Source: a virus
Taxonomy: Duplodnaviria > Heunggongvirae > Uroviricota > Caudoviricetes
Virus record (IMG/VR): IMGVR_UViG_2529292718_000007
DNA length: 49,349 nucleotides
Strand: one strand, 5' to 3'
In this document: one piece after another, positions 11,812 to 37,898 of the stretch
How the letters are laid out: the number at the start of each line of letters is the position of its first letter
How positions within the stretch are numbered: the first letter of the stretch is position 1
Made by a program: the position numbers and the translations under genes
The notes under the pieces: model-generated
Databases searched by the model: none
What the model saw: the letters and a program-made list of their open reading frames with translations, nothing else
What the model was told of the DNA's origin: nothing

Positions 11812-12275
11812 TTGTGGGTATGCTTGGTACAATGCCTTTTGTTGCCTCATCAATAGTGGTGAATACGTTCAACAATTTTAAAAGGACGTCAAAGCGTCGT
11901 GTAGCGCGCCATGATGTTATTGGGCTTAAACCTGTTCTGGAGGATATAGGTCCAGATCTGGATGAAGTTAGTTTTAATATGCGGTTGGATACAACACTTG
12001 GCATTGTTCCATTGGCTGCGCTTTCATTACTTAGGACAATGCAATCAATTCAGGAAGTAAATCCTGTTGTAATTGGTATTCAGTATTTTGGTAATTTTAT
12101 AATTACAGATATAGAGGAATCATGGACTTATTTCGGTCCAACTGGGAATCCACGAGTGATTATCGTCGGCATTAAATTACAGGAAGTCGGACAGACCTCT
12201 CTGAAAGAAGCATTAGTTGATATTGCTGGCAATATAGAGTCAAAAACTAGAAGTGCGTTAGGTAAATTATTATGA
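11808..12275 (+). CDS. Putative baseplate protein
   Basis: 155 aa ORF with overlapping start/stop between gpV-like and gpW-like genes. Confidence 0.4.
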   Translation: MIVGMLGTMPFVASSIVVNTFNNFKRTSKRRVARHDVIGLKPVLEDIGPDLDEVSFNMRLDTTLGIVPLAALSLLRTMQSIQEVNPVVIGIQYFGNFIITDIEESWTYFGPTGNPRVIIVGIKLQEVGQTSLKEALVDIAGNIESKTRSALGKLL

Positions 12276-17164: not shown

Positions 17165-17781
17165 TGGCATTCAGAATGAGTGAACAATCACGTACCGTAA
17201 AAATTTATAACCTGCTGGCCGGAACTAATGAGTTTATTGGTGAAGGTGACGCATATATTCCACCTCATACAGGGCTGCCAGCTAATTCTACAGATATCGC
17301 CCCACCGGAAATTCCTGCTGGCTTTGTGGCAGTTTTTAACAGTGAAAATGAATCGTGGAATATTGTTGAAGACCATCGTGGTAAAACGGTCTATGACGTG
17401 GCGTCGGGGGACGCATTGTTTATTTCTGAACTCGGACCGCTACCAGAGAATGTCACCTGGTTGTCGCCAGCAGGGGAGTATCAGAAGTGGGACGGCGTAT
17501 CCTGGGTGAATGATGAGGAAGCAGAAAAACTGTTTCGGATACGGGAAGCGGAAGAGAAAAAGGCAAGGTTGATCCAGGAAGCAACAGATAACATCGCAAT
17601 TCTGCAGGATGCAGTTAATCTTGAAATAGCAACAAACGAGGAAAATTCACAACTGGATTCCTGGAGAAAATACAGAGTATTAGTGAGTAGAATTGACACC
17701 AGTACAGCTCCGGATATCGTATGGCCAGAGCTGATGAATCAGGGTTATGTTCGGGAGGACGAGCAGATAACTTCAGACTGA
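17164..17781 (+). CDS. Tail fibre assembly protein
   Basis: 205 aa; immediately follows fibre gene; Tfa-like N-terminus and acidic coiled C-terminus. Confidence 0.7.
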
Positions 17782-18308
17782 AATTTAGTGATGAATGTTG
17801 AATCATCAGGAATATCATGCAATACCAATGCATGAGCACCTATTGTGACATTGTTTCCTATACGCACTTTGCCACCAAGAATGGTGGCATTACAACCAAT
17901 GGTCACATTATGCCCTATAACAATATCCATATCATTAAATTCCCCGCGAAGTCCAATAGTTACTCCGGGCTTAATTGAACAATTTTCACCGATTGTTACT
18001 TTGTGACCGATAACAACACTGTTGAGATAAGAAATATCAAAGCCTTTCCCTATATTTACAGTTAAAGGGACTGTTACATTATATTTATCAAGAATGAAAC
18101 GTTCTATTTTTCCCGCAATCTTCCGACAGTATCCGCCTTTATCAAAAAGGTATTTGGCTATGCGCCACCAAAATAAATAACGAACCCTTCTATGTTTTAT
18201 TGCGCGAACAATTGCCTTTCGCCAGGAGAAAGGACGCTCGCTACCGATTACTTCATAGTGAATACAGTCTTTAAGTTCATTAATATTCATATCTTTATTA
18301 TTCAGCAT
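17745..18308 (-). CDS. Hexapeptide-repeat acetyltransferase (WcaB/CysE-like)
   Basis: 187 aa; tandem hexapeptide repeats ([21 protein letters not shown]...[14 protein letters not shown]); AT-rich; convergent with and overlapping 3' end of fibre-assembly gene. Confidence 0.75.
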
Positions 18309-18782
18309 AAGATAATCATGTGACCAATTATTGTAATAATTTTAATGGTATGTTTCTACTGGCTATCCAGCGTGTCTGATATCCAGTAACAAATCGTCAA
18401 CACGGGTGCAATCAAATGGTGAGTGTTAAGACTGACCACTTATTACCAGGTATGAGTGGCCAGCATTAAATCAGAACAGCCCTTTAACTGAACTGGCCGC
18501 GCTGTTAAGGGATGATGTCACCTTATCTTTGAAGCCGGACAGCATATTGCTGAACGATGAGTTTACCGCAGGTTTCTGGCTGGGAATCATTGACTGGAGT
18601 TAGGCCAGTAGTATGATGCTCGCAAAACGAGATCCAATTTAGATCCTTTTACTGGTGGATTATCGTTCGATCAGTGAGAGACTTCGTGCATGACCGAAAG
18701 TGTTGTGGTAGAGTTCTCTTAAAACCACGTAACGTGGTTATGATTGTGGGTGTCTGGTTGGAAAGTGACCAGATATGGAAAC

Positions 18783-18895
18783 AAAAAGCCCGCAGATAAA
18801 TCTGCGGGCTTCTTGCGACATCCACGGAAAACCAACAACTAACCATGGGCGCCTCGACAACTCCCATTATACGTTGGTTTTCCGTGGACGCAAGA
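18783..18895 (-). ncRNA. Candidate CopA-like antisense RNA opposite the repA leader
   Basis: Minus-strand hairpin GCCCGCAGA-ttta-TCTGCGGGC followed by TTTTT (about 18782-18810) and a 15 bp stem (CCACGGAAAACCAAC / GTTGGTTTTCCGTGG, 18812-18889) in the repA leader; promoter not located. Confidence 0.4.
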
Positions 18896-18903
18896 GCGAA
18901 CAT

Positions 18904-19752
18904 ATGGATAGACCAATGCCGTCTCTACGTTCAGCTTACGTTTGTAATTTGTCGCCGGAGTTCCAGCCTCCAAAGCACCATACGCACAAGCTGCCGCTGG
19001 TGTTATCTGATGCTTTACAGCGCATTAATGGGCGTGATCTTACGTGTGAGGTTGCGTTCTACGTTAATCAACCGTCAGAGCGGAAGCGCCGGATAAACGA
19101 GCATCGTCGTCGGGCGATTAATGCTGTGATCGCTGCGATTTTGCACCATGTAAACATCATTTCTAAGCGGGTTCTGGCCAGTGCTGAGGCGTTGGCTGAT
19201 TTTTGCGGCCTGTCTACCGTATCCGAAGCTGGGAACAAGTCTATAACGCGCTGTACAAGGGCGTTGTCGCAACTGAAAGCGTTAGGTTTTATTGATTATG
19301 AACGTCGCTGGGATCGGGTGAATAAACAGTATTGGCCAGCGAAAATAGAGATTCGTGATCAACTGCTGGAAACCGTTGGTATTACTGAACAAGCATGGAG
19401 ACGTGCGGTTAGCCAGAAACTTAATTACTTCAATGCGAAGAATAGCGAACGGCTTAAAAAAGCGATAACGGAGGCTGATTATAAGCGTATTGTTATTCAG
19501 GAGCAGATGGAGAATGTATGGCATCAGAGGAAGACGGCCAGAGAGATAAAGGCAAAACAGAAAGCAGCGGAGAGAGCTGCGCGTCTTGTTCGGGAAAAGG
19601 GAGAGGCCGAACTTCGTCATCAAATCACTAGAGAGGTTAGCCAGGAATTTGCTGATGGCATGTATCCTGGAGCTGACCTTGCATATTTACGATCCCTCGT
19701 TGAGCAGCGTTATAACAGGTTAAGAAAGACCTGGAAATCACTCCAACATTAA
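18904..19752 (+). CDS. repA: Plasmid replication initiator RepA (IncFII RepA1 family)
   Basis: Clear RepA1-like motifs (RRRAINAVIAAILHH, CGLSTVSEAGNKSITRCTRALSQLKALGFIDYE); track ORF begins at ATG 18775 but the leader hairpins lie inside that extension; alternative starts 18775/18916. Confidence 0.8.
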   Translation: MDRPMPSLRSAYVCNLSPEFQPPKHHTHKLPLVLSDALQRINGRDLTCEVAFYVNQPSERKRRINEHRRRAINAVIAAILHHVNIISKRVLASAEALADFCGLSTVSEAGNKSITRCTRALSQLKALGFIDYERRWDRVNKQYWPAKIEIRDQLLETVGITEQAWRRAVSQKLNYFNAKNSERLKKAITEADYKRIVIQEQMENVWHQRKTAREIKAKQKAAERAARLVREKGEAELRHQITREVSQEFADGMYPGADLAYLRSLVEQRYNRLRKTWKSLQH

Positions 19753-22468: not shown

Positions 22469-22741
22469 ATGACGGGTTATGAATTGAAATTATGGCGTCG
22501 TGGGATGAACTGGACGCAGGAGCGAGCCGCCGAATAATTTGGGATATCGTTGGCTACATATAAGCGATATGAGAAGGGGGAGCCGCCGAGGGTCATTGAG
22601 ATGGCCATTCGCGTTCTGTCGTTTGACGATATGGTTAAGGATCTTTCACACCTTGATAAAGATGCGATTCTGTTAAGGCTGCAAACCCTTGTATGGGAAA
22701 AGGTTAAAGTGTCGTCAGAATTGGAACAAGGGATCAAATGA
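22469..22741 (+). pseudogene. XRE-family HTH gene interrupted by in-frame TAA
   Basis: ATG 22469 with strong SD GAGGAGGA; MTGYELKLWRRGMNWTQERAAE then TAA at 22535-22537, same frame continues ...FGISLATYKRYEKGEPPRVIEM... to 22741. Confidence 0.55.
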
Positions 22742-22792
22742 TCCTTTACGGATCGTTTTATGGTGGTGTAATGTAAGCGCCAGAAAGACAAA

Positions 22793-22814
22793 AACCGCCT
22801 TGCCGGGCGGTTTT
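22793..22814 (+). terminator. Rho-independent terminator
   Basis: AACCGCCttgccgGGCGGTT followed by TT. Confidence 0.5.
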
Positions 22815-23347
22815 CAGTCTGAAATTTAAATCTTGCTTGGTAGGCTGGATTTAAAAAGACACCTCTTGATTGGGGCGGCTTTCTTGCGTCTAAAGATAAT
22901 CAAATCTTTTTGCGCCTGCAACCCCTTTTTTACTGGTGCCTGTTTCAGACTCACGCTCGCGTCGTTGTCTTTGCCACTTCGTTGGGTTCGGTGTTTTTGG
23001 GCGGAGTGGCGCGCGGGTATGCGTACAAGGGGAAAGTGTGCTGACGCAAGCCAGGAACAGCGATCTAAACTAAGTCGAGTCTGAGAAAGGCAGGAGTGCG
23101 ACAACTCGCCTGTGCTCAATGAGCAGAAGAAGGTATATCAGACGACCAATGGCATGATTGTGGGCCACAGGGCGCACACGGCGGCGAAGCATTGGAAACG
23201 ATGTGGAGCTATCTGGTGGCATGAGTTCCGGTACTCGATCTCGAGCTTTTTTTGATGCTTTTGAGAAGGGGCCGGAACTCCGGTAAAGGGCACCCTGTAT
23301 GGGGGGAGGGGGGGTTGTGTCTTAAAGGGGCCGTAGCCCCTTTGTTG

Positions 23348-24490
23348 TTATGGTCTGCTTTTCTGTGCGAGCTTATCAGCACATGTTTTTATCAGCTCCT
23401 GTAGTGTCCTGGCTGGCAGGTTTGCATCCAGTACGCTGAGTATGCTGTTGTGATCTGCCTGGTCGACTACTTTGCCTGTCGGTGGTAATAGCTTGAGCTG
23501 AGGATTCAGGTTTTCGTCAAAGCTGATAAGTGCTCTGGCGTTTCTGAGCAGATCAAGAAGTAAGGCTGATATCACATTTTCCTGAGTCATTGCTGGCAGA
23601 TTTAGCGCCGCTTTGGTTTTCCCTGTTGCCTTGTCAAACTCCTTGATTAGTTCCTTCCTGTAGTTCGGTTCCGTTAATAGCCGATTATGCTCTGTTGCCG
23701 CGCGGATAATCGTTTTTTCCTGGTACAGTCGTTTAGCCAGATCGCGCTCGTACTGTGTTTTTAACACGCTGCTGATAGCGCTAAAGGCTTCAATGTAGGC
23801 CAGCTTGATATCCTTCACGCCTGGACCGTCGATACTTTCCATGAGCAAGGTAAATCCGTCTTTTGTCATGCGATAGATTGTTATTTCGCGGTCGCTTCCT
23901 TCCAACGGTCGTTGCTCTTTAAAGAAATGACGCGCCGCAGCTGTGCGAGGAATGCGTAACGCATCGATGGCCATAACGATGGAATTGTTTGTGGTGCTGA
24001 ATGCTTGGGCAACATCGGCTGAGGTTGTGAGTGGCTCGTTATTGCACACCTTAATGTAAAACATCGGTTTGGCGTTGAGCGTATCGACAACCTCACGAGC
24101 ATTGTTTGGCGAGACGGTTACGGTCGCGGCCGTTTGCGCGTTCTGGTTGAAGTAGCAGTCTTCCAGCCGTTCGAATACATCCCACGCCTGATCGGTTTCG
24201 AGCATTTTAGCGTGACGTGCAGCCCCGCGTTCGGTCCAGAGGATTAGTTTTCTAACGTTATTCGCGATGGTTTGAAAATCTCTTAAAGAGATTTTCAAAC
24301 TTTGGAGATCTGTACCTTTTACAATTATGAAATGTTTTCCTTCTGTAAACCGGGACTTATTACGGTGGTGATTTCTGTGAAGACATTCGACGCTACAGCC
24401 ATATAGTTTGGCAAGCAGCTCCGTGGTGATAACGGGGATCTGGTTATGCAGGATAGGCTGTAGGGTGTTAACGGTCGGAAGAGTTTTCAT
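23348..24490 (-). CDS. ant: Phage antirepressor / Rha-family regulatory protein
   Basis: 380 aa; two Rha/antirepressor-like segments (IPVITTELLAKLYGCSVECLHRN; PLTTSADVAQAFSTTNNSIVMAIDAL). Confidence 0.55.
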   Translation of the reverse strand: MKTLPTVNTLQPILHNQIPVITTELLAKLYGCSVECLHRNHHRNKSRFTEGKHFIIVKGTDLQSLKISLRDFQTIANNVRKLILWTERGAARHAKMLETDQAWDVFERLEDCYFNQNAQTAATVTVSPNNAREVVDTLNAKPMFYIKVCNNEPLTTSADVAQAFSTTNNSIVMAIDALRIPRTAAARHFFKEQRPLEGSDREITIYRMTKDGFTLLMESIDGPGVKDIKLAYIEAFSAISSVLKTQYERDLAKRLYQEKTIIRAATEHNRLLTEPNYRKELIKEFDKATGKTKAALNLPAMTQENVISALLLDLLRNARALISFDENLNPQLKLLPPTGKVVDQADHNSILSVLDANLPARTLQELIKTCADKLAQKSRP

Positions 24491-24678
24491 TTTGCACCTC
24501 CCATAACTACTTTGGTTACGAGGGAGATTTTTGCGTCAGAAACAGCGTTATCGTTGCTGGCGATGCGCATAGCTTCGCGCTCGATTATTTCAGCCAGGCG
24601 GAGTTTATCGGCGTATGAGGCTTTCTTGAGAAGGATCTTTACGAGGTTGACGTAATAGTCATGGGGTAGGTTTGTCAT
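24487..24678 (-). CDS. Small protein co-transcribed with antirepressor
   Basis: Track ORF 24487..24714; internal ATG at 24678 has GGAGA SD; stop overlaps ant start (ATGA). Confidence 0.45.
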   Translation of the reverse strand: MTNLPHDYYVNLVKILLKKASYADKLRLAEIIEREAMRIASNDNAVSDAKISLVTKVVMGGAK

Positions 24679-25431
24679 TGTGATATCTCCAGTATATGGA
24701 ACTATCACCGCCATTCGAGGCTAATCAAATGGTGGTGAGCCGTACAGGGTTAGCCTTACCGGACACAATGACGAACCGGCGCGGATTTCTCCGCCCCTGT
24801 ACGACCCACCATAATTTGGGCGTAACAGTGCTCTACGCATAAAAAAACCGCTAACGCGGTATGCGCCATCGTGTTATTCAGGAGGCTAATCCCGGCCGTA
24901 GATTTTGCTACGGCTCGGAAAGTGTCCACCAATGGCGCATTTATGTCAATACGGCGGGGTTTTAACAGAGACAACCACATAGCGTGGGTTTATTGGTAGG
25001 CAGAAACAAAAAAACCGCCCTATTGAGGACGGTTCTTTCGTGCTGATCGGATTCGCGGTCCTTTCAGCATTACGTTGTTGTATAAACAACCACGCAAGCA
25101 CAAGCAGCAAGTTAATTTTACCCAAAAGGTAATAATAGTCCACTATTATGCTTCAAAAAATTGTGGTTCTTGTTGTGCCTGCAAACTCACAGATTGTGGG
25201 TAGGTTACTGATTTTGTGAAAATAAACGAGTTTTTTCGTTTAATTTCTTTCCTATTACTAATCTTAAAATAATCGTAAAATACCTGTGGACCTTCCCGCC
25301 GATTCGCACCCGGGCACCGACTTTAGGGGAGGATTCTCCGTTGCCGTACATGCAAGCACAAGCAGCCGTGCTTGCTCTCGCGTTGTTTTCGTCGGTGGGG
25401 ATGCCGTGAAACGGCCTGTAAGGGCCATACA

Positions 25432-25554
25432 ATGAAAAAATACTGTATGTGTATTTTTATCGTTGTTACTGGGGCTTTGTTTACGCCACATGGGGAGGGT
25501 TGGAAGATTACTGATAACGCTCTGAATGTGACGATAAACATTAGCAGCAAGTAG
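25432..25554 (+). CDS. Small hydrophobic peptide (40 aa)
   Basis: MKKYCMCIFIVVTGALFTPHGEGWKITDNALNVTINISSK; followed by strong terminator. Confidence 0.3.
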   Translation: MKKYCMCIFIVVTGALFTPHGEGWKITDNALNVTINISSK

Positions 25555-25559
25555 CGATT

Positions 25560-25583
25560 AGGCCCCTTCGGGGGCCTTTTTTT
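25560..25583 (+). terminator. Rho-independent terminator
   Basis: AGGCCCCttcgGGGGCCT followed by TTTTTTT. Confidence 0.7.
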
Positions 25584-37822: not shown

Positions 37823-37898
37823 GGCCCCTTAGCTCAGTGGTTAGAGCAGGCGACTCATAATCGCACGGTCATCGGTTCAAATCCGGTAGGGGCCACCA
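37823..37898 (+). tRNA. tRNA with CAU anticodon (Met or lysidine-type Ile2)
   Basis: 76 nt cloverleaf: acceptor GGCCCCT/AGGGGCC, D-stem GCTC/GAGC, anticodon loop CTCATAA, T-arm ATCGG-TTCAAAT-CCGGT, 3' ACCA. Confidence 0.85.

Follow-up and report, generated by a model that had tools for sequence, protein, structure and literature searches.

ColE1-type replicons are laid out around an RNA II of ∼550 nt and an RNA I of ∼100 nt with three stem-loops, and the binding of RNA I alters the fold of RNA II (PMC8683028). Here, we describe a non-coding block in a Caudoviricetes genome of 49,349 nt (IMG/VR record IMGVR_UViG_2529292718_000007; this whole stretch is referred to as the window), a phage-plasmid of ∼48 kb with myovirus-type structural genes. 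From sequence comparisons, we consider it probable that this block, at ∼22720-23325 on the plus strand, is a strongly diverged ColE1-type replication origin. The block is more conserved than its flanks, its plus strand has RNA structure, and its architecture is collinear with that of ColE1. Another close system is phage P1, which has two origins, the plasmid oriR with RepA and the lytic oriL with RepL, beside the c4-icd-ant immunity region. Like P1, the phage studied here is a temperate phage kept as a plasmid, with a c4-type antisense RNA and an ant operon, and it would have two replicons if the block is active. Unlike in P1, where the second origin is protein-dependent (RepL) and belongs to the same operon as ant, the candidate origin would be RNA-primed and is convergent with ant.

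A preliminary description of this region, made from the sequence alone, had outlined a GC-rich non-coding block at 22830-23345 with inverted repeats and a G tract, and had suggested either a structured RNA or a slippage-prone regulatory element. Every feature that it listed is present at its coordinates, and the region is indeed GC-rich (G+C 53.8% in 23001-23500 vs. ∼45% typical of the window). The extent had to be redrawn: the left edge of the functional unit is at ∼22720-22745 rather than at 22830, which takes in a promoter and the hairpin at 22789-22816, and conservation ends on the right at ∼23325. What had gone unrecognized is the RNA architecture, which is that of a ColE1-type RNAII with an antisense RNAI, the similarity being weak but significant. 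The repeats and tracts of the region are as follows.

22816-22824 (plus), 22943-22951 (minus) and 23078-23086 (plus): motif AGTCTGA(A/G)A
22816-22824 and 22943-22951: long-range repeat, 9 nt, 100% complementary
22932-22952 and 23077-23097: long-range repeat, 21 nt, 81% complementary
23223-23231 and 23272-23280: perfect 9-bp inverted repeat GAGTTCCGG / CCGGAACTC, flanking CTCGATCTCGAG at 23234-23245
23301-23314: G tract GGGGGGAGGGGGGG
23327-23340: terminal hairpin GGGGC-CGTA-GCCCC, scored as a plus-strand terminator

The AGTCTGA(A/G)A pattern occurs four times in the window with 0.59 expected, and none of 100 shuffles reached four.

Across phage-plasmids of Escherichia, Salmonella, Klebsiella, Citrobacter and Yokenella, the block is 86–90% identical, compared with 67–78% for the flanking genes. 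Between E. coli and Salmonella, the identity is 86% in the block, 91–96% in its 5′ hairpin region and 67–78% in the flanking coding sequences, and the two versions of the adjacent helix-turn-helix (HTH) protein share 70% of amino acids. Judging from these alignments, the block is a real element under selection, because its identity exceeds that of the flanking coding sequences. The following stretch is unchanged in all close lineages (17 distinct variants).

23015-23061, plus: invariant 47-nt stretch GGGTATGCGTACAAGGGGAAAGTGTGCTGACGCAAGCCAGGAACAGC, 81% identical in the divergent copy L073

This copy was the only truly divergent one retrieved by a pattern scan of viral contigs; it is full-length and 69.5% identical. 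It is located directly after a tail-fibre gene on a contig with a T7-type terminase, and has no HTH gene, orf126 or repA beside it. The block is present in this unrelated phage backbone and therefore is a self-contained module.

JGI 3300036772, contig Ga0376650_0000218 (L073 / L083): divergent copy, convergent with a parA operon; S74 peptidase domain on the tail fibre

Another contig (L084), with a ParA 76% identical to that of L073, carries genes for a DNA polymerase of family A and an SNF2 helicase, and stops short of the region where the element would lie. In addition, we found two deletion variants in metagenomes. One (L048:237-751, minus strand) is without 50 nt (window ∼22972-23021), so that a covarying hairpin with a conserved loop and the 3′ strand of the outer helix are taken out; the other (L061:2423-2949, minus strand) is without 22 nt (∼23069-23090). 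These may be inactive copies or may point to dispensable domains. Diversity beyond the close copies came only from L073 and these two variants. Two scans of species-representative genomes gave no more distant copies, no further copies were found with relatives of the L073 ParA, and relatives of the neighbouring HTH protein occurred in other genomic contexts only.

As the preliminary description had noted, the block holds no credible open reading frame (ORF): none is conserved with signs of purifying selection. No plus-strand ORF is kept in frame and single-base indels are scattered along the block, and we rejected a protein-coding gene or pseudogene. One minus-strand ORF (50 codons, 23070-23222) is open in all variants, with mostly non-synonymous changes, while the sole short ORF common with L073 accumulates frame changes and non-synonymous changes. 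Covariance-model searches had been proposed as a check; with Rfam 15, no family reached the gathering score in 22817-23345, nor did relaxing E to 10 give a match there. The 5′ edge of the block (22785-22875) is touched by weak Phe_leader and RNAI matches below threshold. A search for tRNA and tmRNA found nothing inside the block.

The folding signal of the single sequence is modest (z about −2.6 on both strands); the real structural evidence is the comparison between copies. In 27 distinct variants, the consensus fold has 98% of cells paired, with strong compensatory change in the hairpins 22972-23011 and 23189-23204, the latter with a GAAA tetraloop. When L073 was added, 25 pairs were changed on both sides, compared with 9.3±2.0 in shuffles (0/500) and 4–11 in slid-partner controls. 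There are 381 G·U cells and 25 A·C cells, and 74 and 9, respectively, among the variable pairs of the best-supported helices; since G·U far outnumber A·C, the plus strand is the RNA. The structured RNA proposed in the preliminary description is therefore upheld, as compensatory changes keep helices paired and conservation in the block exceeds that of the neighbouring genes, and we regard a conserved structured plus-strand RNA as highly probable. Its main parts, 5′ to 3′, are listed below.

22816-22824, plus: segment A, AGUCUGAAA, within the antisense-target region; can pair with segment B
22932-22952, plus: segments X and B; pair either with segment A or with 23077-23097
22955-23018, plus: long hairpin domain with a conserved 20-nt apical loop UUGGGUUCRGUGUUUUUGG (22983-23002)
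23062-23165, plus: central multi-helix domain, with the hairpin UGCUC-NAY-GAGCA (23114-23126) and the helix GUCUGA/UCAGAC
23189-23204, plus: hairpin with a GAAA tetraloop closed by G-C; 3–4 covarying pairs across lineages
23223-23281, plus: long 3′ hairpin GAGUUCCGGU...GCCGGAACUC with a U-rich apical loop

The domain 22955-23018 has the best covariation of the element, with five pairs changed on both sides (helix 14). Here L073 rewrites GCCACUUCG/CGGAGUGGC as UUUUACCG/CGGUAAAA, and the outer helix UCGCG/CGCGG as CUAUG/CAUAG, both still complementary. In the central domain, helices 17–21 have eight pairs changed on both sides, and four of the five are 99–100% paired (helix 20, 94.8%). The 3′ hairpin includes the repeat TGAGTTCCGG/CCGGAACTCC of the preliminary description, and its upper stem UCUCGA/UUGAGA becomes CCAUUG/CAAUGG in L073, again complementary.

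Some of these pairings exclude each other. The A:B pairing is a perfect 9-bp match, and its counterparts in L073, GGAACUAG and CUAGUUCU, differ from it and are again complementary to each other. In the pairing of X with Y (the opposite strand in 23077-23097), the second-position pair is C-G in E. coli, whereas Salmonella, Citrobacter and L073 have U-A there and two more lineages have U·G; this pairing is mutually exclusive with the local hairpin 23088-23110, which covaries as well (helix 20). In one set, 22943-22951 pairs with either 22816-22824 or 23078-23086; in the other, 23088-23097 pairs with either 22932-22941 or 23103-23110. Both sets of exclusive pairings covary, which suggests a switch of conformation. 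RNAalifold also drew a long-range helix of C4U6 (22922-22931) with the G tract; this helix was rejected, as the C4U6 partner is not conserved in L073.

These data also bear on the view that the block is no RNA at all and represents a decayed protein gene, a DNA-level site (for instance, for Xer-type multimer resolution) or a phase-variable homopolymer switch. In its favour, one could cite the minus-strand ORF open in all variants, the two long G runs of the tract, and TGCGTACAA at 23020-23028, inside the invariant 47-nt stretch, which we take to equal the XerC-binding arm of ColE1 cer. Yet the changes in this ORF are mostly non-synonymous, single-base indels occur along the block, and compensatory changes with G·U intermediates point to RNA. 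No XerD arm follows the XerC-like one, which is probably a coincidence, and we rejected an Xer/cer site. The G runs are stable as well: the first is G6 in all 45 copies, and the second is G7 in 40, G8 in four, where a T-to-G substitution leaves the total length unchanged, and G5TG in one. In L073, the tract is exactly G6AG7 despite the overall identity of 69.5%. As its length is constant across copies, the tract is not slippage-prone, which leaves the second suggestion of the preliminary description, and a phase-variable simple-sequence repeat, unsupported. The tests thus largely refute a non-RNA explanation, and we consider it extremely unlikely.

The putative transcripts of the block follow the ColE1 plan. 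The predicted elements are the following.

22720-22781, plus: sense (RNAII-like) promoter region with GATC-containing inverted repeats
22746-22751 and 22769-22774, plus: sense promoter, −35 TTACGG and −10 TAATGT with a 17-nt spacer; predicted start at ∼A22782
22789-22816: stem-loop 1 in the sense RNA, AAAACCGCC-TTGCCG-GGCGGTTTT, which doubles on the minus strand as the intrinsic terminator of the predicted antisense RNA
22783-22886, minus: predicted RNAI-like antisense RNA of ∼104 nt, with a short 5′ tail and three stem-loops, the last being the terminator
22921-22893, minus: predicted antisense promoter, −35 TTGCAG (22921-22916), 17-nt spacer, −10 TATCTT (22898-22893)

The predicted sense transcript is a long non-coding RNA of the pre-primer type, ∼510–540 nt from ∼22782 to the G tract (508 nt to the origin-equivalent site at ∼23289, 533 nt to the end of the tract); the L073 sense promoter is TTGCGG-17-TATCTT. 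Stem-loop 1 scored as a strong minus-strand terminator and is the most conserved stretch (91–96% identity). The modelled antisense RNA of ∼100 nt would be complementary to the 5′ end of this pre-primer; like the pMB1 RNAI, it folds into three stem-loops, with a z of −3.2 for the window and −2.45 for L073. Relative to the sense start, its ends are at ∼+5 and ∼+105, and those of an Rfam-confirmed RNAI on a real ColE1-type origin are at +5 and +109. The position of the antisense promoter matches that of the RNAI promoter in pMB1, and L073 keeps the −10 TATCTT, the TTG of the −35 (TTGCGC vs. TTGCAG) and the distance of 17 nt between them, although the spacer itself differs at 8 of its 17 positions. 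Variation in the antisense target was not significantly enriched in loops (12 of 42 unpaired and 16 of 63 paired positions vary).

Overall, the element resembles ColE1 and pMB1 in having a non-coding sense RNA of ∼510–555 nt, here a predicted one, transcribed towards the origin; an antisense RNA of ∼100–108 nt, likewise predicted, with three stem-loops, lying over the first ∼105 nt of the sense RNA and ending at its start; alignable promoter hexamers, spacing and start; a GAAA hairpin and a hairpin with a U-rich loop just before the origin; and a G run ∼20 nt before the transition site. Unlike in ColE1, the −35 is much weaker, and conservation reaches ∼35 nt past the ColE1-equivalent origin, G6AG7 included. 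No Rop was found: the 62-aa ORF downstream had no Pfam match, and its identity as Rop was rejected. Also unlike ColE1, the annotation of one relative contains no mob or cer functions, and the element resides not in small multicopy plasmids but in phage-plasmids of 47–50 kb that also bear an IncFII repA and parA.

For a quantitative comparison, we used five genuine ColE1-type origins (L087-L091); Rfam RNAI scored 58–84 bits in the three of them that were scanned as controls (L087, L089, L091). An nhmmer profile of the element matched all five origins, on the plus strand and collinearly. Profile positions 431-555 correspond to the last ∼125 nt of RNAII up to GGAAAAAC, with scores of 11.6, 8.4, 6.0, 5.9 and 4.6 bits, while the best profile score among 1000 dinucleotide-shuffled origins was 3.6 bits. 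The first ∼75 positions correspond to the RNAII promoter and stem-loop 1, with 12–13 bits in one origin only (L090); the same region in L088 was not significant (E 2.2, −3.8 bits). Smith-Waterman scores against a pMB1-type origin were 22–23 for the whole element, compared with 11.7–11.9±1.2–1.5 when shuffled (window and L073; 0/300), and 15–16 for the 3′ domain alone, compared with 10.0–10.2±1.3–1.4 (1/300), with z-scores of ∼3.4–9 overall. The score of 22 for the window is driven by the promoter region, where the promoters align hexamer for hexamer, start included (TTACGG-17-TAATGT-7-A vs. TTGAGA-17-TAATCT-7-G in the pMB1-type RNAII). Stem-loop 1 aligns with stem-loop 1 of ColE1, that is, the RNAI terminator.

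The origin-proximal secondary structure of RNAII is common to the element and the ColE1-type origins. In a joint alignment of six element copies and five origins, 17 pairs comprising the GAAA hairpin and a 10-bp stem were 94% paired, compared with 33–55% in slid controls, and their covariation score was 0.54 vs. 0.27 in shuffles. The GAAA hairpin occupies the same alignment columns in genuine ColE1 RNAII (CCAGGGGGAAACGCCUGG). The 10-bp lower stem of the 3′ hairpin is 100% paired in all 11 sequences, including the five origins, with a G-C to C-G swap, and its apical loop TTTTTTTGATGCT aligns with ColE1 TTTTTGTGATGCT. Similarity among ColE1 plasmids stops just after the origin, as it does in the element family.

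Several observations weigh against a ColE1-type origin. The 5′ matches partly reflect a generic terminator-like hairpin, as another hairpin of this sort reaches 7.2 bits, the best score in the rest of the window. In the reciprocal direction, a profile of the five origins had no match in the block even with E allowed up to 1000, and the five are mutually related, so that their matches are not independent. The central ∼300 nt are not alignable with ColE1. On the minus strand, Rfam RNAI (RF00106) scores 18.1 bits for the window and 17 bits for L073 with a threshold of 47, these sub-threshold matches having the expected location and strand. A consensus scan missed both promoters, which are weak. 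In blastn against 72,556 plasmids, the block is linked only to its own family, and no plasmid relying on the element alone was found; a 31-kb record is an incomplete assembly and is uninformative on the dispensability of repA. An intact IncFII-type repA is already there, and a second origin is not obviously needed. Finally, in many variants an ORF with a ribosome-binding site directly follows the block, ahead of the plus-strand terminator, which fits a leader RNA too.

Part of this would agree with a trans-acting structured RNA of a new class, such as a protein sponge or an anti-defence RNA, whose likeness to ColE1 would be convergent or due to chance. In its favour, the element matches no Rfam family, escapes the reciprocal profile and is a large, well-structured RNA with a 47-nt invariant core and a GNRA tetraloop, carried by two unrelated phage backbones. 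Still, chance is an unlikely source of a similarity that is collinear at both ends, correctly oriented and accompanied by hairpins in the same columns. Besides, the window has no significant complementarity to the block elsewhere, by which we rejected a trans-acting antisense RNA, and a CsrA-type sponge was rejected because GGA motifs are not enriched by a rough count, although GUACAAGGGG resembles the binding consensus. A trans-acting role is thus very unlikely.

Returning to the ColE1-type origin, its 3′ end involves two features.

23284-23290, plus: GGTAAAG, tentative equivalent of the ColE1 RNA-to-DNA transition, aligned with GGAAAAAC; placed by alignment only
23301-23314, plus: G6-A-G7 polypurine tract, located 12–26 nt past the origin-equivalent site; no strongly conserved feature follows it

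In the pMB1-type locus, a distance of 555 nt from the RNAII start falls in an A run. Polypurine RNA-DNA hybrids are unusually stable, and in mitochondria the CSBII motif, a G run, A and another G run, is located where primer RNA passes into heavy-strand DNA. The motif of the element, G6AG7-8 followed by UU, is nearly the same and lies beside the proposed RNA-to-DNA transition; unlike CSBII, it would serve different polymerases, and the two have no homology. By this analogy, we infer that G6AG7 may stabilize or delimit an RNA-DNA hybrid.

The mechanism may be pictured as follows. The weak promoter TTACGG-17-TAATGT would start a non-coding RNA of ∼510–540 nt near 22782, which would fold into the conserved multi-helix structure and run towards ∼23284-23314. 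There it would stay hybridized to the template, be processed by host RNase H and be extended by DNA polymerase I for leading-strand synthesis, with G6AG7 just beyond the ColE1-equivalent transition possibly holding or bounding the hybrid. The antisense RNA of ∼104 nt, produced from the promoter at 22921-22893 and ending at the hairpin 22816-22789, would pair with the nascent sense RNA over its first ∼100 nt. With 22816-22824 sequestered in this duplex, the fold could shift so that 22943-22951 pairs with 23078-23086 instead; the shifted fold would block primer formation and would in this way set the copy number.

A more specific version, which is possible though rather doubtful, is that of an induction-responsive (lytic or copy-up) origin silenced by the antisense RNA in the plasmid state, in which G6AG7 acts as a CSBII-like, RNase H-resistant R-loop anchor fixing the 3′ end of the primer. 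Such an anchor would be a mechanism absent from classical ColE1, and the phage-plasmids would fall into incompatibility groups, perhaps superinfection groups as well, according to how their antisense stem-loops differ from lineage to lineage.

The right border of the block is relevant to yet another explanation. Conservation ends sharply at ∼23325, to the right of which variants have ant directly, Rha, or an inserted ORF and then a plus-strand terminator. Thus, an insertion hot spot is located between ∼23325 and this terminator, directly after the G tract. Its cargo, behind which a strong terminator is located in each case, is a 62-aa ORF, an N-terminally membrane-anchored protein of 214–218 aa (phrog_23465) or a small zinc-ribbon protein.

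L002:6576-6761, L005:3592-4236, L026:1480-2136 and L073:∼11860-12030: cargo sites of the hot spot
23323-23344, plus: intrinsic terminator common to the block and the convergent ant, outside the conserved block

The element could be a sense/antisense riboregulatory module that primes nothing, a leader or non-coding RNA, of ColE1 descent or not, which controls read-through into the cargo and/or the convergent ant operon. Cargo ORFs with ribosome-binding sites are placed suitably for this in several variants, the c4-icd-ant immunity operon runs towards the element, an intact IncFII repA is carried by the phage-plasmid already, and the covarying alternative pairings suggest a switch. However, the window and many relatives without cargo keep the whole block at 86–99% identity, L073 has no ant operon nearby, and the cargo is wholly different between variants, so that it does not explain the conservation. 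Such a module would also leave the similarity to the ColE1 RNAII promoter and origin-proximal hairpins unexplained, and we find it unlikely, preferring the ColE1-type origin.

We also considered type I toxin-antitoxin systems. Like hok/sok and ryfA-like loci, the element is an unannotated plasmid or prophage locus with a highly folded sense RNA (300–400 nt in those loci), long-range alternative pairings and a short antisense RNA, in this case a predicted one. Unlike hok/sok, it has no conserved small hydrophobic ORF on its sense strand and no Rfam match. A hok/sok-like system was rejected, since indels disrupt the candidate plus-strand ORFs, none of which keeps its frame across variants. The ryfA locus encodes a type I toxin mRNA, and the window has a full-length ryfA-family RNA at 25286-25582 (plus strand; 141.8 bits in Rfam), unannotated in relatives. 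Elsewhere in the window, Rfam identifies c4, isrK, ryfA and one tRNA. The latter, at 37823-37898 (plus strand), has a CAU anticodon and is called tRNA-Met by ARAGORN and tRNA-Ile in the RefSeq annotation of relatives.

The window also encodes a HigB/HigA pair and ParA. Its immunity region resembles that of P1 and, on the minus strand, has isrK-like and c4 RNAs first and then icd and ant. This immunity I module (23348-24914) runs convergent with the block.

18775-19752: repA, intact, IncFII-type
24841-24914, minus: isrK-like RNA of the immunity I module
24728-24816, minus: c4 antisense RNA of the immunity I module
Immunity I module, minus: 75-codon icd-like ORF and 380-aa ORF6N/Rha-type antirepressor

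Directly upstream of the block, an XRE-type HTH gene (22469-22741) is interrupted in the window by an in-frame TAA at 22535-22537 and is intact in relatives (90 codons); its 3′ end extends into the upstream portion of the promoter proposed for the sense RNA. The window contains exactly two copies of the palindrome TTCAG-N-CTGAA, one where the block begins (22813-22823) and the other at 17772-17782, inside a minus-strand ORF (17745-18308) ∼1 kb upstream of repA; with one mismatch allowed, it is at chance level (equalled in 13 of 100 shuffles). Nearly all 500-nt windows have a positive GC skew, also in the region 23.3–28 kb with minus-strand genes. This fits unidirectional replication in the plus direction, which is that of the proposed primer RNA, and does not separate the proposed origin from the RepA origin.

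Near-identical elements are present in 72 of 5,426 complete E. coli genomes, including that of ATCC 25922, nearly always on plasmids of 47–52 kb. Further carriers are Salmonella, Klebsiella aerogenes, Citrobacter, Yokenella and three Yersinia phages; these Yersinia members make part of the family infectious phages. None of the annotated records inspected has an RNA or regulatory annotation over the block. MOB-suite typing in PLSDB assigns no replicon type to any of the three family members inspected, while ColE1-type control plasmids do receive one. Similarly, five family members deposited before 2020 are missing from a census of 1,035 ColE1 plasmids, which includes two control plasmids. We found no description of the element in the literature.

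We infer that the element is a new, strongly diverged form of a known replicon type in an unusual host element, where it would function in replication. If so, the ColE1 family extends well past small multicopy plasmids, with members that escape replicon typing, Rfam and a dedicated hidden Markov model census, and G6AG7 would make the element a natural variant for studying how an RNA primer is defined. If the origin is active, these phage-plasmids would have two replicons of different kinds, which would bear on their copy number and incompatibility and on how they switch from being maintained as plasmids to lytic amplification and back.

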